Below are positions 4,048 through 42,420 of a DNA stretch of 64,000 nucleotides, piece after piece (the stretch's first letter is position 1; every line of letters begins with the position of its first letter). The DNA is from a virus (lineage: Duplodnaviria; Heunggongvirae; Uroviricota; Caudoviricetes): positions 41,848 to 105,847 of the IMG/VR virus record IMGVR_UViG_3300020048_000021. One strand, written 5' to 3'. The notes beneath the pieces are model-generated. The model had not been told where the DNA came from and did not search any database. It saw only the letters and a program-made list of their open reading frames with translations. The translations under genes were made by a program, and so were the position numbers.

Positions 4048-4054
4048 ATAAATA
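4048..4054 (+). promoter_or_regulatory. late promoter ATAAATA
   Basis: Directly upstream of ATG 4059. Confidence 0.65.
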
Positions 4055-4058
4055 CAAG

Positions 4059-6749
4059 ATGAACTTAAAAGAACTAGATAACTTCTCACTAAGCGACGCC
4101 ATTAAATTTCACGATCAGTTGAATCCTGCTCTCTTTAATGACGAGCATATGAAACCGGAAGTCAGACACAAACTGTTAGAAATTTCAGAAGAGTTTGTAG
4201 ACTCATTGGGCATCAATCAACTACATATTAAAGATATTGTAGTGAGTGGCAGCAATGCTGCCTATTCATACACAGATCATAGTGATATTGATCTACATAT
4301 TATCACTGATATGAATGAATTTAATAATAACAATATCTACTTAGAATTATTCACTGCAAAAAAGAATATATTCAATGATGATCATAACATTAAAATAAAA
4401 GGGTATGACGTAGAAGTTTATGTTCAAGACTCGAATAAGCCAGTTAGAACATTGGGCGAGTACAGTGTATTGAACAACAAATGGACTAAACTTCCGTCCA
4501 AGCGTAGAGCTAACTTTGATCAAAGTAGCGTTGAACTTAAATTTACTAAGTTAATTCAGTTAAGTGAGTTAGCATTACGTGATACTAATATAGATAAATT
4601 ACAAAATCTACTAGCAACACTCAGAAAGTATCGTCAGGCTGGTCTAGACGAGCATGGTGAGTTTGGACCAGAGAACCTAGCATATAAAGCGTTGCGTACT
4701 CACGGTTACGTTGATAAATTATACGATCATTTAAATGATTTAATTAGTAAAAAATTAAGTTTAGATGAAATGATAGCAGAGCAACGAGAGCCATTGGTAT
4801 GGCTCAAAGGCAAACTAAGTGGGTCATATACAGACAAGCAACTTAAAGACATGGGTGCTAGATTGCATAATGGTCAATGGGTAATGACTAAGGCTAGGTT
4901 TGATACATTGATCAGATTGGGTCAGTTACGAGAGTCTACGAGTAGACTCAGTGTGACGAAAGACTTAAACGAATTTGCCTCAGGAAGCGGTGACGATGAT
5001 TTCGGAAATAATATAGTATCTTTAGATACAGTTGCGAAAATAATAGCCATGGAGTTTGGCAACAATGTTACTATAACCAAGGGAACAAATAAGAATCAAC
5101 CATCGTTTAAAATTTCACCTAATAATCAAAGCAATAACTCTATTAGAGTATGGACTACAAGACATCCAAGAACAAAGCAGGTAAATCCTACCTATAACAC
5201 CATTCTATTCATTGATAACTACGGTAAACGAGTCGAGACTGCTAAAAGCAGTACATATGCCAATGCTTTATCTACAGCTAAGTTGTTGAAAAAACCACAA
5301 GATGTAACTGAAAACACAAGCTCTATCAGACTTAAAGATTTAGCAAGAGTTTCTGTCAATATGCCAGATGCAGATTTTTGGATAATTCGCAAAGGTAGTG
5401 ATAAAACAGTAGGCACACCTGTTAAAGAATTTAATCCAGAACGAATTGGTGTTAAAATTGTGCGTACTGACGTGCTTGAGCCACAGTATCTTTATTATGC
5501 AATAATGCATCTTCACAATCAAGGATATTTTGCTAAAGTGGCAGTTGGTACGCTCAAGTTAGTTAATATTAAAGTAGCCGACGTTGCCAATATTTCACTT
5601 GGTCAGCAAACGGTAGATGAAGATTATCATTCAAGTGATCGACCACCTGGTCCAGAATTCCCTCCTACTATGCCTCGTGGTACTGTTAAAGTAGATGTTT
5701 CTGACGTTTACGATTGGTACAAGTTGGGACAACATATTAGTAATTTGAAAGGTTTAGGTAAACATGATTTTGGTAAAGGACCGCCTAGCACTATAATATC
5801 ATTTGGCGATGAAGACACTGAACACAAATATATTAAAGATTTAGAAAAGACTGGATTGTCAACGACTGACATTGACCCGTCTGATCCTAAACAACCAAAA
5901 AATATGAAACGTCAAAAAGTTGATCCGACATATAACGTAGCGGAAGACAAAATAACATTAAGTACCGATCCTAATTGGTATGGTGCAACAATTAATAATT
6001 ATAAAGCAACCGGTCCGGTGGTCAATATACCCGTTAATCAATTAGTTGGTTTTGAGCCAGATGACAAGATGAATCAACCAAAGAGTAAAGCTAATGTTGA
6101 AAAAATAGTAATGGGATTAAAGCGTGGTGATAAACTTCCTCCATTGTTAGTTCGTAAATACAAAAATGGGTATCAAGTATTAGACGGTCATCATAGATTT
6201 TGGGCATATAAATTAGTAGGAACAAAAACTATTCCGGTACAAGTTGTTCCTGATTCTGACATAGAAGAAAAAAGTCAGCAAGTTGTATCAGAAGCCACTC
6301 CTTTTCCAAAAAGTAATGATTATATCGCCGATGAATTAGATAAACTACAGCAGTATTGTGAACAAAATAATATGATCAACTTAACAGAAGTCGTAAAAGC
6401 ATTAAGTATGATGTTCAGAGAGTCCATGAAGACCGGAATTGAAATGTTCTATTGGTTGAAAAATGAAGACTATAGAAGAGCTAAATGGATTAATAAAAAT
6501 CTTAAGACTGTTGGAAACAAAATCGATCTTTCATTATTAATTAGAAGAGAATTAGCAAGAAAGAAAAATCGTGTGACTGAAGCTAGTGGATACATTCCAA
6601 GCGAAGCAGAGAAAAATGATCCACGTTTCAAGACCGCATTAACAGTAGACATTCATCCTAATACGATGAAACAAAATGCCAAGAAATTAGGTTCTAAAAT
6701 ATCTAGAGCAGGTATTCCTCCAATTCTGAAACCATCCGGTAAAATATAA
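4059..6749 (+). CDS. multi-module protein: Pol-beta-type nucleotidyltransferase, unknown modules, HsdS-TRD-like module and ParB/Srx-like module
   Basis: GS..DxD motif VSGSNAAYSYTDHSDIDLH plus DVEVYVQ; ParB/Srx-like LPPLLV..YQVLDGHHRFWA; modules bounded by [LV]xE. Confidence 0.75.
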   Translation: MNLKELDNFSLSDAIKFHDQLNPALFNDEHMKPEVRHKLLEISEEFVDSLGINQLHIKDIVVSGSNAAYSYTDHSDIDLHIITDMNEFNNNNIYLELFTAKKNIFNDDHNIKIKGYDVEVYVQDSNKPVRTLGEYSVLNNKWTKLPSKRRANFDQSSVELKFTKLIQLSELALRDTNIDKLQNLLATLRKYRQAGLDEHGEFGPENLAYKALRTHGYVDKLYDHLNDLISKKLSLDEMIAEQREPLVWLKGKLSGSYTDKQLKDMGARLHNGQWVMTKARFDTLIRLGQLRESTSRLSVTKDLNEFASGSGDDDFGNNIVSLDTVAKIIAMEFGNNVTITKGTNKNQPSFKISPNNQSNNSIRVWTTRHPRTKQVNPTYNTILFIDNYGKRVETAKSSTYANALSTAKLLKKPQDVTENTSSIRLKDLARVSVNMPDADFWIIRKGSDKTVGTPVKEFNPERIGVKIVRTDVLEPQYLYYAIMHLHNQGYFAKVAVGTLKLVNIKVADVANISLGQQTVDEDYHSSDRPPGPEFPPTMPRGTVKVDVSDVYDWYKLGQHISNLKGLGKHDFGKGPPSTIISFGDEDTEHKYIKDLEKTGLSTTDIDPSDPKQPKNMKRQKVDPTYNVAEDKITLSTDPNWYGATINNYKATGPVVNIPVNQLVGFEPDDKMNQPKSKANVEKIVMGLKRGDKLPPLLVRKYKNGYQVLDGHHRFWAYKLVGTKTIPVQVVPDSDIEEKSQQVVSEATPFPKSNDYIADELDKLQQYCEQNNMINLTEVVKALSMMFRESMKTGIEMFYWLKNEDYRRAKWINKNLKTVGNKIDLSLLIRRELARKKNRVTEASGYIPSEAEKNDPRFKTALTVDIHPNTMKQNAKKLGSKISRAGIPPILKPSGKI

Positions 6750-13658: not shown

Positions 13659-16600
13659 ATGAAATTGTACGAATTATTCAATGAAAAAAGAAATGTACAA
13701 CTGAATGAAGTTAATATGAGTTCTAGTGCATTAAAATCTTGGGCAAAAAAACATGCTAGTGGCATGAAAGCGGGGTTTGAAGCAGAGCTAATATTTAAAG
13801 ATATGCTTAACCCTACAGTAGATGATGAAGAAGATCAAGATCGAGAACCTGATTATGATAGAGATGAGCGAGCCAATACTATAGATCAAATCCTAGAGTT
13901 TTTTAGTCCATTACTTGATTTATCCACGAGAAACTCTGCTGAACAACAAATGCACGATTCTTACACTGAATGGAGAGACACTGCAGTACTTGAGGAATTT
14001 GCTGAACAGGCACGTGACTTGATAAGAGACTATATTAAAGCTGATCTTCGCTGGGAATATTCTGAAAAAATTCATGAATATTTTGTTAATGAACTGGGTA
14101 AAACTTCAGAAGAAGCAACTGATATAATGAATGATCCAGATCGCACTGATAATGATGAGTACATATTTGTAAAAAGAGAAGTATCAGATCAATTAACTCA
14201 ATTAGTTGAACGTTCTATGAGAGATCATGATGGAAACTGGCAGGGAGCTTATGACGAGTTTATAGAAAACTGGGAAGCTTCTGAAAGAAGTTGGTTGAGA
14301 AATATTGGTATCTTTAATATGCGTGATGTAGGCTCAAGATTTTCATTCGCGAATGAATGGCCATATTGGAGTCGAGTAAATAACTCTGCCCCTGCAGATG
14401 GTCACTATCATGTAGGACATGCTCTTATTTTGGCAGGTAGTCTAGAAAAAACACTAGGTGTAAAAACACAAGTAGAATCTGGTACTAGAGGCTCCGCAGC
14501 AAAACGTAATACTCCATCTGATGTTTGGGTATTTGAAGCAGATGGTAGCTTAAATTCAACTAATAGCGAAGACATGCCCGTGGAAATTGTTAGCCCACCT
14601 ATGTCTCTAGAAGAAACTCTAGCAATTATGCCTAAGTTCTTTGAATGGGCAAAAAGTCACAAAGCCTATGCTAATAAAAGTACTGGAATACACATGAGTG
14701 TTAGTATGCCAGAACACAGTGGTAATGATTTAGATTACGTTAAGGCAGCATTATTTTTGGGTGATCAATACATACTAGAACAGTTTGGTCGAACTGCCAA
14801 TTCATATGCTCAGTCGGCAATGAAAAATATTAAAGATATTATTAACTCAAGCAGATCAAGAACTGTTATACCAAGACCAGATAATAAAATTGAGCAAGCA
14901 TTTAAACAAATGCGAACAGAGTTAAATTCTTTAGCTACAAATGCATTTGCCTCTTCTGCCGGATATGGTAAGTATTTTACGATTAATCCCAAAGACAAGT
15001 ACATTGAATTTCGTTCAGCTGGTGGAGTAGATTACGTTAATAATATTTCTAAGCTACAAAATACAATGTTACGTTATGCACGTGCAATGAGTATAGGCAT
15101 GGATGTCAATGCAGAAAAGCAAGAGTATGCTAAGAAATTATATAAGTTATTAGGTGATGTTACATTACAAAAAGATTCTGATGGTAAAGTAACAACTGTA
15201 TCTAAACAAGATCCAATTTGGTATTTTTCTCAATATGTAGCTAATGAATTGCCACGAGCAGCATTAAAAAGTTTTATTAAACAAATTCAAAGCACTCGTA
15301 AGCTTTATAAAAAGTCAGATAAAGGCGAGAACATGTTTTATAGAGTTGCATATAGAGCATACGAAGGAGGAGATCGTCAAGGTGGGCCACAAACAACTGT
15401 TCAGGCCAGTAGTCAAGATGAAGCTATAGCTTTGGCTCGTGCAGAATGGCACATATCTCCAGAAACTCATCGAGGATGGCAAAATTCTGACTTTATAGCT
15501 AGACCGATAGGTTCGACTCCAACGGGCGCAGCAAATGTTACCACACAAAATAACCCCGACAATCTACCTCGATGGGAAGTATTTAATATTAACGATTTTT
15601 CATGGACGGTTCCTGGATTTGGTGATACTGAACGAGCTGCTATCATGAATGCTCTACAAAATTATCATTATAGTTTATGGACTAGAGGATCAACTGAGCC
15701 TACAGAATTTAGAGCAACATTACTATCAGATGATGCCACATCCAGACAATATGATAGTTCAAATGATATTCAGCCTGGGCATATACCGGACTATTTGCCA
15801 AATAACACTTCAGATGGAAATTGGGCAATAAGAAATAGAGATAGTAATCGTCAAGTTGGACGAGGACCAATACTGTATCAATTTCAAGCTTTGGGAAATA
15901 ATCTGGCAATTGACATAGCAATGCAGTATGCAACAGCAATAGGAGTTTCACGAGATCGTTTGTGGTTAAGTCCTATATCTGAAGTTCCACGAGAATATAG
16001 AACACAAAGATCAGAAAATCATGAAACTCGCCACCCTGTAGAATTAGACGTTAATCAAACAAGTACAACTGGATATTGGATTGTGTTTAATTCAGCCGAT
16101 GGTGTTACAAACATGGACAATCTAGCTCTTCTTCCAGCTATTACTGCACAAGATGCACAACTTGCATATCAACATTGGCTTCAAAATACTGGTTACATGC
16201 TAGGGCGTGAGGCAAGATTTTTTCTTCGCCCAGCAGATTCATATGACGTTATAGATGCACGAGATAGAAATCTTCCAGTTCCTCCCAGAATGCCGGCTAA
16301 CTCTTCACAGACTCTTGAACCAAGTAATCCTGAAGGCAATTGGGGAATAAGAGCATCAGATGGTCGTATAGTGTATCGCTTTATTAGCCACAATACCGGT
16401 ACGTTAATTGATCGTTTAAGAGCATATGCAAATGCAATAGGACAAGATTACAGAAATTATAGTATAGACAGAGTTGACCCAGAGAGTACTACTGCTGAAC
16501 CAGAACAGTCTACTAGTACGTCTACTGATCCAGATGAATCGCTACAATGGAATATTATCGACTCTGCTACTAATGAAGTTCTACATCATATTACTTTGCC

Positions 16601-16733
16601 ATCAACGACTCCGCCATCTCAAAGACATACCGATGCGTGGCAACTGGGAGTAGAATGGACAGATGATGCCAGAATTCGAGGACTTCGTATACCACGAATT
16701 GAATTAGTTCCATTGCCAATGCTGTATCCATAA
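13659..16733 (+). CDS. putative amidoligase (COOH-NH2 ligase, GCS/GS fold) paralog 1 with C-terminal repeat modules
   Basis: GFEAE, EADGS, EIVSPP, NKSTGIHMSV, KYFTIN, YIEFRSAGG. Confidence 0.8.
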   Translation: MKLYELFNEKRNVQLNEVNMSSSALKSWAKKHASGMKAGFEAELIFKDMLNPTVDDEEDQDREPDYDRDERANTIDQILEFFSPLLDLSTRNSAEQQMHDSYTEWRDTAVLEEFAEQARDLIRDYIKADLRWEYSEKIHEYFVNELGKTSEEATDIMNDPDRTDNDEYIFVKREVSDQLTQLVERSMRDHDGNWQGAYDEFIENWEASERSWLRNIGIFNMRDVGSRFSFANEWPYWSRVNNSAPADGHYHVGHALILAGSLEKTLGVKTQVESGTRGSAAKRNTPSDVWVFEADGSLNSTNSEDMPVEIVSPPMSLEETLAIMPKFFEWAKSHKAYANKSTGIHMSVSMPEHSGNDLDYVKAALFLGDQYILEQFGRTANSYAQSAMKNIKDIINSSRSRTVIPRPDNKIEQAFKQMRTELNSLATNAFASSAGYGKYFTINPKDKYIEFRSAGGVDYVNNISKLQNTMLRYARAMSIGMDVNAEKQEYAKKLYKLLGDVTLQKDSDGKVTTVSKQDPIWYFSQYVANELPRAALKSFIKQIQSTRKLYKKSDKGENMFYRVAYRAYEGGDRQGGPQTTVQASSQDEAIALARAEWHISPETHRGWQNSDFIARPIGSTPTGAANVTTQNNPDNLPRWEVFNINDFSWTVPGFGDTERAAIMNALQNYHYSLWTRGSTEPTEFRATLLSDDATSRQYDSSNDIQPGHIPDYLPNNTSDGNWAIRNRDSNRQVGRGPILYQFQALGNNLAIDIAMQYATAIGVSRDRLWLSPISEVPREYRTQRSENHETRHPVELDVNQTSTTGYWIVFNSADGVTNMDNLALLPAITAQDAQLAYQHWLQNTGYMLGREARFFLRPADSYDVIDARDRNLPVPPRMPANSSQTLEPSNPEGNWGIRASDGRIVYRFISHNTGTLIDRLRAYANAIGQDYRNYSIDRVDPESTTAEPEQSTSTSTDPDESLQWNIIDSATNEVLHHITLPSTTPPSQRHTDAWQLGVEWTDDARIRGLRIPRIELVPLPMLYP

Positions 16734-16769
16734 TCAATAACTAAAATACAGAAAAGTTTAATGTCTATA

Positions 16770-16777
16770 GATAAATA
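16770..16777 (+). promoter_or_regulatory. late promoter GATAAATA
   Basis: 5 nt before ATG 16783. Confidence 0.7.
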
Positions 16778-16782
16778 CATAT

Positions 16783-19593
16783 ATGAAACTGTATGAATTA
16801 TTTGAAAAACAATTAAACGAAGTCAATATGAGTCCCGGCTCATTAAAGTCATGGGCTAAAGAAAATGCCAGTGGAATTACTGCTGGATTTGAAGCTGAAT
16901 TGGTATTTAAAAACGCACTTCATGTTGATGAAAATCCTTCAGAACCGAATTATGAGCCTGATTATGGTACAAATGAGCGCGCTAACGACATTGATCATAT
17001 AGTTTATTTTTTCAGTGAAGACTCTAATATGAGTTCTGGAGAACAAAACAGACTTCAAGACAGACTCACTAGTGAATATGTAGAGTGGAAAGTTGAAAAA
17101 ATGCAAGATATATTTAATAGACACGTCACTCATTATGTAAGAAAATATCTTTTAAAAACTTTTCGTTTTGAAGAAGAAATGAAGGCTTATATGTCAGTTC
17201 GTATGGAAATGACAGATGATGAAATTGATGTCGCAATGGCAGGATCAAATAACAGACCTACCGACAAATATAAAGAAGCTAAAGAATTAGTATTCAATGA
17301 ATTTACTCAAAGAGTTCATGATGCGGTAGATAATCAAAACGAAGATTATGATGATGCTCGTCAAGATTTTGAATCAAATTTTGAGTATGATGACACTTAC
17401 AGTGAACGTTCGTGGTTAAGAAGTAATAGTCTGGGATCAATGATTGACGTTGCAAATGCATATGATATTCCATGGCCTCATTTTTCAGAAGTAGAAGAAA
17501 ATAATAATTCATTTGATGGACGCTATCATTCTAATATTGCACAAGAACTAGCTGACTCTCTAGCAGAAAAACTAGGTGTAAAAACACAAGTAGAAACTGG
17601 TACTAGAGGACATCGTGAAAAACTAAATACTCCTCCTGATGTTTGGGTATTTGAAAATGACGGCAGTGTACGTGCAGAAAATATCAAAGACATGCCCATA
17701 GAAATTGTTAGTCCACCCATGTCACTAGAACAAACTCTAGCAATAATGCCTAAGTTCTTTGAATGGGCAAAAAGTCATGAAGCTTATACTAATAACTCGA
17801 CTGGAATACACATGAGCGTTGGTATGCCAGAACATAGTGGTGATAAATTAGATTATACCAAAGCTGTATTATTTTTAGGTGACACATACGTACTAGAACA
17901 ATTTGGTCGAATAGCAAATTCATATGCTCAGTCTGCACTTGACGAAATTAAATCAAAAATTAACGCAAGAAGAAAAAATCTAATACCAGCTGATAATGCT
18001 GTGACAAAAGCTCTTGACTCAATGCGTACAAAATTAAATTCACTGGCTACAAGATCATTTGTCAGTTCAGCAGGATTTGGTAAATACTACACTATTAATC
18101 CTAAAGACAACTATATTGAATTTCGTTCAGCCGGCGGTAAAGATTATATCAAAGATATTCCCAAGCTACAAAGCACTATGTTACGTTATGCTCGTGCAAT
18201 GAGCATAGGTATGGATCCCGATGCAGAAAAACAAGAGTATGCTAAGAAATTATACAAGTTGCTAGGTGATGTGAGACTTACTGCAACTAGAAGTGATGAT
18301 ACATTTGGTCCACCATCTTCAATAAATAAAAAAGACACGGCAGTGTCATATGATCCAAATGATCCAGTTTGGCTTTTTGCTCGTTACGTGTCTGGTAATC
18401 TTTCAAGAACTGGATTAATTAATAATATTAGACAAATTCAATCAACACGAAAAGGTCCCCTACCTAAGTCTTCTAATAATAACAGAAAAACATGGCAATT
18501 ATATGATATGTCAACTAGTGACTCTTCATCTAGCGGAGGATTGATTCATGAATTTGAGAATCCAGAGGGTAATAGAGGAAGTGCTATAACAATTGCACGA
18601 GAATGGTTAAATTCTCATCCAGAAGAATTTCGTCCTACTCTGGGAGTAAGACCAGCTCCAGTATCGCCAGTACATAGTTGGAGAGTATGGAACATATATA
18701 GACCTGGTAATACTCGTACTGCATTTGGAAGCACAGCACAAGAGGCTATTACTAGTGCTAGAGCAGATCCTGAAAATTCAGATTGGTCTCGTGGATATAA
18801 TCAAGCAGATTTTGGAGCATCTCGTGATACTACTTACGCTGATAATCAAACTAGATCGGCGTCTATAGCGGATTTACCCCCAAGCGATCCAAGCGGTAAT
18901 TATGTTGTAAAAACTTACGATGGCACGGGCCGTGCCGGCACGGGCGGTGCTAGAGGTCAGGTAGTGTATCAATTCTCGGCTGAAAATCTTACTGCAGCGT
19001 ATAACATAAAAATACAATGGGTAGAATCAATAAATGGCGTGCAATCAGACTATATCTTAGCACGAGCAGAGACCGCTACACAACAAGAACCTGAGATGAA
19101 TTTACCTCCAAATGATCCAAATGGTAATTTTATAATAAGAGCAAGACAGCAAAATTCCTCAGGTGAATATAGCAATGAAGGATCTGGTCCGGTATTATAT
19201 CAATTTTCAGCAAGTACTGGTGGAGAAGCAGTGCAAATAAAAAGACTATGGGTACAATCAGTAGGTGGACAGAATGTGCAATATTTCTTAGGGAATGCTG
19301 CTGATATACAACGACTACAAGCAACAAATACATCTCAATCTAGTCAGTACACTCGACCACGCTATAGAACTAGTCAAAATGGTTATTGGGTTATCTATAG
19401 TACTAGTAGTCATAATAATGTTGCTATTATTCCTGCTACTACTCAAGATGATGCAGATTCTGCATATTCAAACTGGCTACAATCTGAATGGAGACCAGAC
19501 GATAACTATGGTATTCGTCCAGCAGATCCAGAAGATTTACAAAATGCTCGTGATGTTGGCATGGAAATTCCTCCGCGAAATAATAATAATTAA
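16783..19593 (+). CDS. putative amidoligase paralog 2
   Basis: GFEAE, ENDGS, EIVSPP, NNSTGIHMSV, KYYTIN, YIEFRSAGG. Confidence 0.8.
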   Translation: MKLYELFEKQLNEVNMSPGSLKSWAKENASGITAGFEAELVFKNALHVDENPSEPNYEPDYGTNERANDIDHIVYFFSEDSNMSSGEQNRLQDRLTSEYVEWKVEKMQDIFNRHVTHYVRKYLLKTFRFEEEMKAYMSVRMEMTDDEIDVAMAGSNNRPTDKYKEAKELVFNEFTQRVHDAVDNQNEDYDDARQDFESNFEYDDTYSERSWLRSNSLGSMIDVANAYDIPWPHFSEVEENNNSFDGRYHSNIAQELADSLAEKLGVKTQVETGTRGHREKLNTPPDVWVFENDGSVRAENIKDMPIEIVSPPMSLEQTLAIMPKFFEWAKSHEAYTNNSTGIHMSVGMPEHSGDKLDYTKAVLFLGDTYVLEQFGRIANSYAQSALDEIKSKINARRKNLIPADNAVTKALDSMRTKLNSLATRSFVSSAGFGKYYTINPKDNYIEFRSAGGKDYIKDIPKLQSTMLRYARAMSIGMDPDAEKQEYAKKLYKLLGDVRLTATRSDDTFGPPSSINKKDTAVSYDPNDPVWLFARYVSGNLSRTGLINNIRQIQSTRKGPLPKSSNNNRKTWQLYDMSTSDSSSSGGLIHEFENPEGNRGSAITIAREWLNSHPEEFRPTLGVRPAPVSPVHSWRVWNIYRPGNTRTAFGSTAQEAITSARADPENSDWSRGYNQADFGASRDTTYADNQTRSASIADLPPSDPSGNYVVKTYDGTGRAGTGGARGQVVYQFSAENLTAAYNIKIQWVESINGVQSDYILARAETATQQEPEMNLPPNDPNGNFIIRARQQNSSGEYSNEGSGPVLYQFSASTGGEAVQIKRLWVQSVGGQNVQYFLGNAADIQRLQATNTSQSSQYTRPRYRTSQNGYWVIYSTSSHNNVAIIPATTQDDADSAYSNWLQSEWRPDDNYGIRPADPEDLQNARDVGMEIPPRNNNN

Positions 19594-19600
19594 ATTGACT

Positions 19601-19608
19601 GATAAATA
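19601..19608 (+). promoter_or_regulatory. late promoter GATAAATA
   Basis: 5 nt before ATG 19614. Confidence 0.7.
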
Positions 19609-19613
19609 TACAT

Positions 19614-22076
19614 ATGAAATTATATGAGTTCTTAATTCAACAATTAGACGAAGTAAGTCAAGCTCCGACACGTTTAGCTCAATTTGCTAATAGTCCCGAG
19701 GCAGAAGGAATCATTGCCGGTTTTGAAGCCGAGCTATGCTTTTCTGATATTCGTGAGAACACTGATTCTGAATCAGAGCCTGATATGGAGTATGATCGTC
19801 ATTCTAATAGTATTAGTAATATTATTGATTTTTTTAGACAGGGCGATAACATGGGTTATCGAGAGCTAGATCGTCTACAAACAAATTTAACTGAAGATTT
19901 TCTTGAATGGGTAACTGAGCAAGCATCAGAAGACTTTGAAAAAAATAAAGAAAGATTAATTAAAGACTATATCATAGAAAATGAATGGGATTGGGACGAG
20001 CAAATAAAAATTGATTTAAAAGATAATGGCTATGATGATGGTAGAATAGAAGACGCGATCTTTGCTAATAACAAAATTATTAAACTTAGAAATAACTATC
20101 AAAAAGATTCATTTCAATACAAATTAGAAGTTAAACCATATTTAGATGATTATCAACTTTATTTAATTGGAAAAGAACTGGCAGACAAGACATTAGATGA
20201 TATGGTAGAAAACTCTATTAACTCTCGCGATGATATCTATGATCAAACAGAAGAGCATATCAGAGAAGAATACGGAGAAGATTCAAACATAGAGAATGAG
20301 TGGCTGGCAGCTGCCGATCTCAGTTACATGAGTGACGTGAATCTCGCTTATGATGATGCATACTGGCCATTTTGGACTAGTGATTATGACGAAGATGAAG
20401 GATTTGATGAGTCGGCAGCACAGTGGCTTGCAAATGATTTAAAAGCAAAGTTAGGAGTAAGAACATTTGTAAGTAGTGGTCATGGATCTGGCGGAGATAG
20501 ACAAAAAGATTGGGTATTTGAACCAGATGGTAGTTTACAGGCTAGTAGTACTAGCGACATGACAGTTGAAATAGTTAGTCCTCCTATGCCACTAAAAGAT
20601 TGTCTTGATATAATGCCTAAGTTTTTCAAATGGGCAAAATCACGCGATGCATATGCCAATGAAAGCACAGGTTTTCATATGAGCGTAAGTGTACCATCAC
20701 AAGATACAAGTTTAATAGACTATACTAAACTGGCATTGTTCTTAGGTGATGTGCATGTTCTAGAAGAGTTTGACAGAGATGGTAATCATTTTTGTGTGTC
20801 TGCTATGGAAAAAATCAAAGCCAGAGTAGCAAAAGGAAATATTGATATAGAAAATGTATTCACTTTGATGAAAGAGGGTCTTGATAATATTGCTAGCAGT
20901 TTAATAGCACCAAACGGTGGGTTTGGAAAATATATCAGTATAAATCCTAAAGACAAGTACATTGAATTTCGTAGTGCCGGCAATACAGATTATTTTGATG
21001 ATATAGATAAATTACAAAATACACTACGTAGATATGCACAAGCTATACACATTGCCAGTGATCCTTCTTACGAACGAAAAGAATATCAAAAGAAATTATA
21101 TAAGCTACTTGCTCCTACCGAAAAGATTGCTCCTGAGCTTGCTAAAAAATTAGCATCATTTTCTGCTGGAAGACTAAGCAAGGAAGAATTAGATAATTGG
21201 CTAAAAGAACTAAAGAGCACACTCTTTAAGAAAAATTTAATTAGAAATACAGATAGTCTAGCAGCATCAGGAAAAATATTAAACTGGGATGTTTCAGCTA
21301 AAGGCGAACCAAGATATAACTACTGTAATGTTTTTGCAAAAACCAAAAAAGATGCACTTGAGTTAGTTAAAAAATGGGAAACAGAATGGCACAACACACG
21401 TGCATCTGTCGATGACTGGGAAGCTACGCTAGTAGGAGAAAGTACAACAGAATCATCAATGAAACGTGTTGCGGTCAGAGATCATTATGGAACTTTGACT
21501 ATAGCAAATAATTCAACTAATCTTTCCGACGCGTATCTTACTCAATCTAAGTGGGAGCTAGTAAATAATAATGAATTAGTACCAGAAACAGTTTGTAAAG
21601 TACTGGCTAGTGACAAATCAGTTGCTGAGGTAATAGCTGATTCGTGGCTACGTTCTATGCATAATCAACGTAATGGACTAGCCGGTTTTGAGCTTAAACC
21701 ACTAAATGAAGTGGCTCGAACTGAAATGAATCAATCTACACAAACTAGATCAAATTCTAATGTTCAAGATATTGGAATGGATATTGCTCAAAACTTTATT
21801 CCTGGATCCACTTTGGACTTACAACATCAAGCTCAAGCTCGGCGTCAACGTCAACGAGACGCACGACTATCAGGGGGCGAATTTACTGGTGAGTGGATAG
21901 TGGTTAATGGATCGGATCAAGAAGTTTATAGATTCGGTGGCATAGGCAACTCTCAAAGTGATGCTAATCGAGTAGCTGGTGAATGGGCACAGAGAACTGG
22001 ATATTTCAACAACAACAACTCTAGATACTCAGTATATCCGGTACTGAGTCCCGATACAAATCAATCCACAACTTAA
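19614..22076 (+). CDS. putative amidoligase paralog 3
   Basis: GFEAE, EPDGS, EIVSPP, NESTGFHMSV, KYISIN, YIEFRSAGN. Confidence 0.8.
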   Translation: MKLYEFLIQQLDEVSQAPTRLAQFANSPEAEGIIAGFEAELCFSDIRENTDSESEPDMEYDRHSNSISNIIDFFRQGDNMGYRELDRLQTNLTEDFLEWVTEQASEDFEKNKERLIKDYIIENEWDWDEQIKIDLKDNGYDDGRIEDAIFANNKIIKLRNNYQKDSFQYKLEVKPYLDDYQLYLIGKELADKTLDDMVENSINSRDDIYDQTEEHIREEYGEDSNIENEWLAAADLSYMSDVNLAYDDAYWPFWTSDYDEDEGFDESAAQWLANDLKAKLGVRTFVSSGHGSGGDRQKDWVFEPDGSLQASSTSDMTVEIVSPPMPLKDCLDIMPKFFKWAKSRDAYANESTGFHMSVSVPSQDTSLIDYTKLALFLGDVHVLEEFDRDGNHFCVSAMEKIKARVAKGNIDIENVFTLMKEGLDNIASSLIAPNGGFGKYISINPKDKYIEFRSAGNTDYFDDIDKLQNTLRRYAQAIHIASDPSYERKEYQKKLYKLLAPTEKIAPELAKKLASFSAGRLSKEELDNWLKELKSTLFKKNLIRNTDSLAASGKILNWDVSAKGEPRYNYCNVFAKTKKDALELVKKWETEWHNTRASVDDWEATLVGESTTESSMKRVAVRDHYGTLTIANNSTNLSDAYLTQSKWELVNNNELVPETVCKVLASDKSVAEVIADSWLRSMHNQRNGLAGFELKPLNEVARTEMNQSTQTRSNSNVQDIGMDIAQNFIPGSTLDLQHQAQARRQRQRDARLSGGEFTGEWIVVNGSDQEVYRFGGIGNSQSDANRVAGEWAQRTGYFNNNNSRYSVYPVLSPDTNQSTT

Positions 22077-25368: not shown

Positions 25369-26289
25369 ATGTTTCCATACATCGGCGGCAAAAAACAACA
25401 TAGCAAATGGATTGATCCATTATTCCCAACCAACTTTAAGACTTATGTTGAGGTCTTTGGTGGTGCATTCTGGATGTACTGGATGAGCAAAAAGACTCCA
25501 GTTAAAACCAATGTGTATAACGATTTTAATCGTCATCTTTACAATGTGTTTACTTGTGCCAGCACAGACCCAAAGAAGTTTGAACTAGCTCTAAAGAATT
25601 TATATCCAAGCGTGGGAAACGCTGTGGTATTTGAGCAATTTCGTGATCAGATATTTCAAGTATACAACACTAACTTTACCACTCCTGACTATGATCTAGC
25701 AGCCAAGTATATGTTCTTACAAACACAGTTTTTTACTGGAGGCTTGGGATTACATGAAAAGACAAAAATTTATAGTAATCCAAAGTATAAATCTAAGTTT
25801 TATACCTATACAGAAAAATTCTCACAGCAACATTACTTAGATAGACTAAGTGTAATGAGTACTGAAAATATGGACTGTAGAGCGGTTATTACTAAATATG
25901 ATCATGCTGATACATTCTTCTACATTGATCCACCATACTTTAACTTAGAAGATTATTACACTAAGAACAGTTTTGGACGTGAGGATCATATTGAATTGCT
26001 AACACAAATGAGTTCCATGAAAGGTAAGTTTGCTTTAAGTTATTATTACTTTAAAGAATTAGAAGACATTATGCCCAGAGATAAATTCTACTGGCACGAG
26101 CAAGTAACTTACTCTAACAATGGCTTGACTAAGGTAGAGGGAGCAGTACGCAAAGACGGCAAATCAGCCAAGGGCGTTAGACCAGAACGAGTAGAAGTTT
26201 TGATCTTAAACTATCAACCTCCAGTTATAGTTCCAGTAGTATCTAAGAGGAAAAAAATCATAGAATCAAATCTATTTACTTTTGAATAA
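25369..26289 (+). CDS. dam: Dam-type (D12 class) N6-adenine DNA methyltransferase
   Basis: FPYIGGK, YVEVFGGA, YNDFN, FFYIDPPY, FALSY. Confidence 0.92.
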   Translation: MFPYIGGKKQHSKWIDPLFPTNFKTYVEVFGGAFWMYWMSKKTPVKTNVYNDFNRHLYNVFTCASTDPKKFELALKNLYPSVGNAVVFEQFRDQIFQVYNTNFTTPDYDLAAKYMFLQTQFFTGGLGLHEKTKIYSNPKYKSKFYTYTEKFSQQHYLDRLSVMSTENMDCRAVITKYDHADTFFYIDPPYFNLEDYYTKNSFGREDHIELLTQMSSMKGKFALSYYYFKELEDIMPRDKFYWHEQVTYSNNGLTKVEGAVRKDGKSAKGVRPERVEVLILNYQPPVIVPVVSKRKKIIESNLFTFE

Positions 26290-26292
26290 ATA
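26286..26292 (+). promoter_or_regulatory. late promoter ATAAATA
   Basis: Overlaps the dam stop, 8 nt before ATG 26301. Confidence 0.6.
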
Positions 26293-41804: not shown

Positions 41805-42420
41805 ATTTGATGTAAATTTAAACAAATTAGATCAACGATCTACTCGTCAGATGTTGTCTAAGGTTCGTGGTTTATTAAAAGAAACTAGAATCAGTAATAA
41901 TTTTATTAAAAATCAAACTAAGCCATCTTATCTTAAAATGGTCATGTTAGAGCAAGTACTGTATAATCACTATCAAGATATTAGACTTCAATCAAGAATT
42001 GTAACAGAAAATGAAGAAGTTGAAAAGTCACAAGTTATTTTGGCTGCTCAAGATATGATTGATCAAATTCAAAAAATGGTCGTACAAGTTTCAAAAATGA
42101 ATGCTGAAGAATTGCCAGCCGTTGTGAATGGAATCAGCAACGAAATTGGAACTTCAGAAAGCGAAACGTATCAACAAAGCGTGGCAGAAGCGTTAACTAC
42201 TTTATTACAGTCATTGACTACTTCAAAAGGAAGCTTAACAAGTGCATTGGGTCAAATCACCGGAGAATCTTCTGACGAAGGCTTTGGCGGCGATGATATG
42301 GGTAATGATTTTGGTGGTGGTGATATGGGTGGTAATGATATGGGAAATGAACCTTCATCAGAATTTTCAGAACCAGAAGATCAAGAAGACTTTGGTTCTG
42401 CCGGCCGTGAGATGAGATAA
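41737..42420 (+). CDS. hypothetical prohead core/scaffold-like protein
   Basis: Helical, acidic Gly-rich tail, VTENEE site; ATAAATA at 41710-41716. Confidence 0.6.
   Translation: MKLTDMSQSRKIQTKRALREHFEFDVNLNKLDQRSTRQMLSKVRGLLKETRISNNFIKNQTKPSYLKMVMLEQVLYNHYQDIRLQSRIVTENEEVEKSQVILAAQDMIDQIQKMVVQVSKMNAEELPAVVNGISNEIGTSESETYQQSVAEALTTLLQSLTTSKGSLTSALGQITGESSDEGFGGDDMGNDFGGGDMGGNDMGNEPSSEFSEPEDQEDFGSAGREMR

Follow-up and report, generated by a model that had tools for sequence, protein, structure and literature searches.

An uninterrupted open reading frame (ORF) of 896 codons, translated without stops, lies in a 64,000-nucleotide stretch of viral DNA (positions 41,848 to 105,847 of the IMG/VR record IMGVR_UViG_3300020048_000021; hereafter, the window). 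Its product, P0001, is a chain of eight modules and a short spacer, and we consider it probable that this chain is a cargo polyprotein, packaged into the phage head and cut there by the prohead protease. In phage T4 the prohead protease gp21 cleaves after (I/L)xE inside the prohead. P0001 would be expressed late and would enter the prohead core, probably via its N-terminal MNLKELDNF helix and/or a conserved module, and a protease of the gp21 family would then cut it after the Glu of (V/I/L/M)-x-E at the module joints. The cuts would release a Pol-beta nucleotidyltransferase (NTase), a unit like the target-recognition domain (TRD) of HsdS, a ParB/sulfiredoxin (Srx)-like unit, the conserved module M5, a basic 55-aa C-terminal module (C-module) and three further units without assigned function; the released units would enter the host along with the DNA.

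The original prediction, made from the letters of the DNA, had placed the module boundaries of P0001 at eight [LV]xE sites, and all eight lie at the residues it gave for them (Table 1), among them the joints QDVTEN, QTVDED, YNVAED, QVVSEA and NRVTEA. The chain holds 16 [LV]xE sites, against 7.4 ± 2.4 in 2000 shuffles, and 19 [LIV]xE sites, against 10.4 ± 2.8; the [LIV]xE surplus amounts to about the eight junction sites, with the other 11 at background level. Since the named sites make up half of the 16 [LV]xE sites, cherry-picking is conceivable; independent homology breakpoints, however, confirm all eight. That the sites are regularly placed holds only loosely, as the units they delimit measure 237, 55, 13, 113, 103, 108, 116, 96 and 55 aa.

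These breakpoints come from a large family of mosaic proteins, with more than 1200 relatives of 528–1537 aa in metagenomes. BLAST maps show that the NTase (residues 1–237, ~54% identity), M5 (522–629) and the C-module (842–896) are shared, with variable cassettes between them that include GNAT, deaminase, ART-PolyVal, peptidase, NT5C, amidoligase, zeta-toxin-like, HD and ParB units (Pfam families PF18760, PF00383, PF01435/PF10463, PF00583 and PF12224). In the maps against 119 relatives, homology breaks at residues 237, 521, 629, 745 and ~841. P0002, P0004 and P0122 diverge immediately after LRE, which gives the border at 292, and P0121 shares just residues 306–418, bounded there by LNE↓F and QGVAE↓G (↓ marks the joint), which gives those at 305 and 418. 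With an independent breakpoint at each named position, the eight sites all mark true borders between modules. The predicted gain and loss of modules at xxE joints is likewise seen in the homologs, which shuffle precisely there and retain the Glu. The three nearest relatives are set apart from P0001 by entire modules: P0122 is 97% identical to P0001 over residues 1–301, continues with STSRLSVAE↓ and then directly with module 7, so that modules 3 to 6 are missing exactly; P0002 is without module 3 and the ParB unit; and in P0004 module 2 is joined to ParB. In an all-versus-all comparison, internal ends of high-scoring segment pairs fall exactly on the Glu of [LIVM]xE in 22% of cases, versus 1.6% for random positions; the breakpoint clustering is noisy (676 and 704 breakpoints), yet 14-fold enriched.

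P0121 (525 aa, metagenomic), whose N-terminus reads MRFNEIKQR, represents a second family of polyproteins, one that has no NTase head; its chain is divided by SVSEGVAE↓, LNE↓, QQGVAE↓ and EQGVAE↓, and so the joint system is not confined to the NTase-headed family. The amidoligase module PF12224 occurs inside P0058, another relative of P0001. Two complete relatives (loci L046 of G002 and L077 of G001) combine M5 with an HxGH nucleotidyltransferase, a deaminase and an HExxH peptidase, and their M5 ORFs end in a basic tail, NFADG(K/R)NPQDKGDS..., in place of the ASGYIP C-module.

The joints obey a rule that is written in the peptide. Among 204 distinct contexts preceding the C-module, the residue just before the joint (P1) is Glu in 167 (82%); in 36 of the remaining 37 the Glu is displaced by one position towards the N-terminus, with S, G, N, C, D or A after it. 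The P3 residue is V in 65 of the 204, I in 51, L in 46 and M in 10 (84%), P2 is free, and 181 contexts have Ala at P1′. The end of M5 reads V/I-x-E in 73 of 79 distinct contexts, ahead of many different modules. At 34 distinct C-module joints the codons differ silently (GTA/GTT/GTC/GTG, GAA/GAG, ATA/ATT), and no nucleotide stretch beyond GAR is conserved. This variation at silent positions indicates that selection acts on the peptide; judged by its codons, the joint is a peptide rule and not a DNA repeat.

The same motif also closes short peptides at the starts of other genes. At least six further genes in the window begin with a nine-residue peptide of the form MK(I/L)x(D/E/Q)(L/I/F)(L/I/F)xE, like the T4 capsid-targeting sequence (CTS), namely MKINQIIDE, MRAKQFIIE, MKIRELLAE, MKLYELFNE, MKINDLLQE and MKINDLISE. 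The N-terminus of P0001, MNLKELDNF, resembles tags such as MKLYELFNE, and its LKE at residues 3–5 recalls ITE-6 of T4 Alt. P0268 and P0269, homologs of module 4 that occur as stand-alone proteins, have a CTS-like tag that stops where the module begins (MRFTEIISE↓NASPRLKDL and MKSYKALLLE↓TRLKDM), at the place where P0001 has the joint QDVTE↓NTSSIRLKDL; P0124 starts with MKISEIINE↓ASGYIP, a tag set directly on the C-module. A module can thus occur in two states, as a single gene with a tag or as a bead within a chain, and the Glu keeps the same register in both; this equivalence provides the strongest comparative argument that tag end and joint are the same kind of site. Also in the window, three tandem large genes (1024, 936 and 820 aa; 13659–22076) start with MKLYE(L/F) and have no PHROG match.

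For structure prediction, P0001 was folded with AlphaFold2 (AF2) in two overlapping parts (residues 1–640 and 600–896) from co-linear alignment rows; these rows were used because MAFFT with module fragments misplaced the C-module and ParB pieces. The models are confident only for the NTase (17–233), module 2 (245–290) and the ParB unit (630–739), and are uninformative for modules 3–5 and the C-module, where the predicted local distance difference test score (pLDDT) is below 50. The joints had been expected to lie between domains, and they do fall in coil or low-pLDDT stretches, with the internal look-alikes IEE737 and LTE777 embedded in secondary structure (Table 1); where pLDDT is below 50 this agreement is weak.

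Three modules had been given identities in the original prediction. The Pol-beta NTase assignment of module 1 stands: besides its PHROG match the module has the GS...DxD motif and stand-alone homologs of ~235 aa in cyanophages and Maribacter phages, and Foldseek returns weak fold matches to ANT/AadA/CD-NTase/MNT proteins. The ParB/Srx assignment of module 6 is likewise upheld. Pfam ParB_N matches at E 2.5e-5 (24.7 bits, slightly below the 26.3 cut-off), Foldseek matches it to ParB, Noc and sulfiredoxin with E 4e-6 and a probability of 1.0, and the GxxR/DGHHR nucleotide-binding motif is present as DGHHR; in relatives the ParB cassette has QGVAE↓ on either side. The HsdS-TRD-like identity of module 4 finds agreement in fold only. 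An ESM Atlas model of residues 419–518 matches Methylase_S clusters with a template-modelling (TM) score of 0.73–0.80 over 97 residues and viral proteins of ~95 aa with TM 0.85–0.89; the AF2 model of this part has low confidence, and neither PF01420 (Methylase_S) nor any other Pfam family matches residues 419–521 at E ≤ 0.1. We treat the TRD-like fold as a lead, not as proof.

No Pfam match was obtained for modules 2, 3, 4, 5, 7 or the C-module. Module 2 (pLDDT 79–87 over 245–290, falling thereafter) is common to P0002, P0004, P0122, P0047, P0056, P0058 and P0100, which diverge after LRE. At the position of the spacer, P0122 has STSRLSVAE↓ and P0121 has LNE↓FAPGNGDD. Module 3, shared solely with P0121 at 68–74% identity, has no clear fold, and ESM Atlas gave no usable lead for it. 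M5 has a mean column identity of 85% (alignment A1), 83–87% identity in the BLAST maps and 310 loci in IMG/VR; its ESM Atlas matches are only weak and ferredoxin-like (TM ~0.5), again without a usable lead. Module 7, which in AF2 shows helices at low confidence, directly follows module 2 in P0122. The C-module is found in 422 cluster representatives (59–1566 aa) at E ≤ 1e-3, almost always at the extreme C-terminus. It resembles the tail of M5 (C-module, residues 842–896, 6582–6746; M5 tail, residues 560–629, 5736–5945), both having KT-x-L-(S/T)-x-D-I-x-P and then a basic stretch, and MAFFT placed C-module fragments onto residues 560–626; the likeness may stem from an old duplication or from a binding motif common to both.

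Table 1. Features of P0001, its joints and associated elements. Positions are those of the window unless a contig is named.
Feature	Residues	Position	Strand	Basis or context
Whole ORF, candidate 896-aa cargo polyprotein P0001		4059..6749	+	>1200 mosaic relatives
Module 1, Pol-beta-type nucleotidyltransferase, ends LDE237	1–237	4059..4769	+	phrog_36119, 1e-39
Module 2, small alpha/beta unit, ends LRE292	238–292	4770..4934	+	AF2 and shared borders
Spacer, 13 aa, STSRLSVTKDLNE, ends LNE305	293–305	4935..4973	+	Comparison with P0122 and P0121
Module 3, ends VTE418	306–418	4974..5312	+	Shared with P0121
Module 4, HsdS-TRD-like fold (lead), ends VDE521	419–521	5313..5621	+	ESM Atlas model
Module 5 (M5), very conserved, ends NVAE629	522–629	5622..5945	+	Alignment A1
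Module 6, ParB/sulfiredoxin fold with DGHHR, ends VSE745	630–745	5946..6293	+	Pfam, Foldseek
Module 7, helical unit, ends VTE841	746–841	6294..6581	+	Model and P0122
C-module, ASGYIPSE...GKI, basic, 55 aa	842–896	6582..6746	+	Terminal in hundreds of cargo proteins
Joint LDE237				AF2: pLDDT dip between domains
Joints LRE292, LNE305				AF2: onset of disordered stretch
Joints VTE418, VDE521, VAE629, VSE745, VTE841				AF2: coil separating clusters of secondary structure
Internal look-alike IEE737				AF2: within strand
Internal look-alike LTE777				AF2: within helix
ATAAATA, T4 late-promoter-like motif (CATAAATA and the base before it)		4048..4054	+	Ends 4 nt upstream of ATG
Starts of tagged genes		7542, 11678, 12853, 13659, 26301, 37732
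Gene starts with variant tags		16783, 19614, 42423
Protease paralog, 129 aa		G000:C1:144291-144680 (L006:19291-19680)	+	38.4 kb past window end

A protease of matching specificity exists in the lineage. Peptidase_S77, the family of T4 gp21, is encoded in four of five related records with M5 polyproteins, including both complete genomes (364 and 339 kb), with E-values of 1e-26 to 1e-28 and scores above the curated cut-off. In these relatives the protease gene adjoins those of a scaffold protein (362–372 aa, with 24–29 [LIVM]xE sites) and a gp23-type capsid protein (E ~1e-99), and near residue 42 the capsid protein carries L-x-E↓(N/S)AT, at the place where the T4 propeptide is removed. In G005, the protease and an NTase-M5-C polyprotein are encoded on the same contig. 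The contig from which the window was taken encodes a short protein of 129 aa with 33% identity (E 3e-19) to a relative's gp21-type protease; it is altered in the stretches around the catalytic His and Ser, and we regard it as a probably inactive paralog of the protease, comparable to gp117 of SPN3US.

The source record has 169,847 bp and is 49% complete according to CheckV. It encodes a large terminase subunit (TerL), a gp32-like single-stranded DNA-binding protein, UvsX, helicases, a primase, a clamp loader, RNA ligases and NrdAB, together with tail sheath, tail tube and RIIA. This gene content makes the source, an uncultured phage from a lake, a T4-related jumbo phage. A gp23-type capsid protein and a T4 portal had no match on this incomplete contig, and megablast for cultured relatives returned no match.

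The original prediction had also given the P0001 gene a late promoter, and this stands in part. The upstream CATAAATA differs from the T4 TATAAATA by one mismatch, but it ends 4 nt upstream of the ATG, an unusual position for a promoter. Exact TATAAATA has two copies in the window, below chance, neither of them upstream of the P0001 gene. Three tagged genes (16783, 19614 and 26301) likewise have ATAAATA 12–15 nt upstream of their ATG; in all, four cargo-type genes have a copy (4048–4054, 16771–16777, 19602–19608 and 26286–26292) only 11–15 nt ahead of the start codon. This distance leaves no room for a T4-style late promoter, a leader and a ribosome-binding site; the late mRNAs of the four genes may be leaderless, or ATAAATA may have another role.

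Each testable prediction that followed from reading P0001 as a cassette polyprotein was borne out, nothing found contradicts that reading outright, and the lineage has a protease of the gp21 family. Several observations nevertheless weigh against packaging and cleavage by this protease. The commonest P3 residue at the C-module joint is V, whereas the T4 rule asks for L or I. The joint before M5 has Glu in 71 of 72 contexts, with mostly T or A at P3, and is thus non-canonical in most relatives, and the NTase of most relatives ends in L(T/S)IE(T/S/G); the LDE237 and VDE521 of P0001 itself are canonical. Residue 9 of P0001 is F, not E, so the protein has no canonical nine-residue tag, and the ATAAATA motif sits too near its ATG for a T4-style late promoter plus leader. 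The AF2 models have low confidence over residues 294–640 and 840–896. No full protease gene was found on the 49%-complete source contig, whose sub-threshold S77 match is the short diverged paralog, and the protease-bearing relatives have a TerL identity to the source phage of just 52–59%. Finally, tblastn against 50,697 phage records matched the NTase module alone, as a stand-alone gene, and provided no cultured relative.

Some of these points would fit a P0001 that stays whole, as an uncut polyvalent protein in which (V/I/L/M)-x-E is a linker, a domain-capping motif or a part of the module fold. Its multi-domain make-up (ParB, with ART-PolyVal, GNAT, deaminase and peptidase in relatives) fits the proteins of Iyer et al. 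2017; N4 virion RNA polymerase, Sog and TraC1 are transferred at full length (PMC5512222); and the Glu before M5 could belong to M5, since there the Glu is conserved but P3 is not. We consider this unlikely, because the same motif closes N-terminal tags and flanks unrelated modules on both sides, because the C-module register shifts by one residue (xE[S/G/N]ASGYIP), against a structural role within the C-module, because a stand-alone module has a CTS-like tag in place of the joint, and because the lineage owns a protease family of matching specificity.

The motif fits both the rule of the T4-type protease and the way in which capsid-targeting tags end, which makes it quite improbable that the chain is cut by an embedded or separate peptidase, or by a host protease, before packaging or after injection; some relatives do hold HExxH, M48 or U49 peptidase modules, and Iyer et al. 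suggest that embedded metallopeptidases do the processing (PMC5512222), but most relatives have no such module, and an embedded peptidase in P0001 was rejected as no peptidase family matches it at E ≤ 1. A by-product origin of the motif, with the joints acting as DNA-level recombination sites for cassette exchange, would account for exchange exactly at the joints, but we give it very little credence: the codons of the 34 joints vary silently, P2 is free, P3 may be V, I, L or M, and none of the P0001 joints spelled out above reads QGVAEG. A DNA-level recombination linker as the sole cause was rejected because of the silent codon variation.

Cleavage of P0001 by the prohead protease, if real, would have several consequences. 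A single capsid-targeting event would load many small effectors, anti-host modules could be gained and lost in plug-and-play fashion during evolution, the T4 internal-protein paradigm would widen from single proteins to true polyproteins, and polyvalent proteins of phages without an embedded peptidase would be supplied with a processing mechanism. The joint rule predicts exact neo-N-termini and flags hundreds of modules as probable injected proteins. The TRD-like and ParB-like units may act against restriction systems; M5 and the C-module, the most conserved pieces and without assigned function, make good first targets. A wider reading, to which we give somewhat less than even odds, is that within a large clade of aquatic T4-related jumbo phages the prohead protease doubles as a polyprotein processor of interchangeable tagged and bead modules, and that M5 and the C-module, each carried by hundreds of cargo proteins that are otherwise unrelated, would be freed as abundant internal peptides with their own function in packaging, DNA condensation or ejection.

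Among known systems, the T4 internal proteins IPI, IPII, IPIII and Alt combine a CTS with gp21 processing (Mullaney & Black 1996; PMC5694885; PMC3012670). Alt is cut at ITE-6 and LTE-619 and loses 6 N-terminal and 63 C-terminal residues (PMC5694885), the 63-aa piece being much like the 55-aa C-module of P0001. As with the T4 proteins, the cargo is diverse and fast-evolving, short N-terminal tags end in (I/L)xE, and the lineage encodes a protease of the gp21 family. T4 cargo proteins, however, are single units that lose short propeptides, whereas P0001-type chains hold up to eight or more modules, each bounded by sites; further differences are that V is the commonest P3 and that the N-terminus of P0001 is without the final Glu of the tags. 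In the giant phages phiKZ and SPN3US, a gp21-related protease cleaves many proteins of the head and of ejection after Glu, in some cases at multiple sites (PMC10052503, PMC5694885), and the SPN3US cuts seen by mass spectrometry, except for self-cleavage of the protease, remove N-terminal propeptides (PMC10052503). There the motif is (A/S/G)-x-E, and the cuts discard propeptides and do not free several functional domains, unlike those proposed for P0001. Polyproteins of RNA viruses that infect eukaryotes offer a parallel, with one translation product divided at sites that are short and conserved, yielding several functional proteins; their domains, their protease and the place of processing (the prohead here) are unrelated, and the analogy is operational only.

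Polyvalent proteins were defined by Iyer et al. 2017 (PMC5512222), who predicted that these proteins are delivered with the DNA, suggested embedded metallopeptidases as the means of release and drew the analogy to viral polyproteins, stating that T4-type Alt ADP-ribosyltransferases do not occur in genuine polyvalent proteins. Such polypeptides join 2–15 unrelated effector domains per phage chain, with ParB-type, NTase, ART-PolyVal, deaminase and peptidase domains. P0001 likewise holds unrelated domains in one phage chain (NTase, TRD-like, ParB/Srx and other modules), and the domain repertoire recurs as ParB_N in P0001 and as the Pfam families given above in its relatives. It differs in having no embedded metallopeptidase, which only some relatives have, in joints that carry the prohead-protease motif, and in its own conserved M5 and C modules. 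The full-text literature searched, in which journals are partly covered, contained no account of T4-like phages with multi-module cargo proteins that have prohead-protease sites as their joints. The P0001 arrangement, as we read it from its sequence and that of its relatives, combines two known ideas: the polyvalent protein and the CTS-targeted, gp21-processed cargo of T4.

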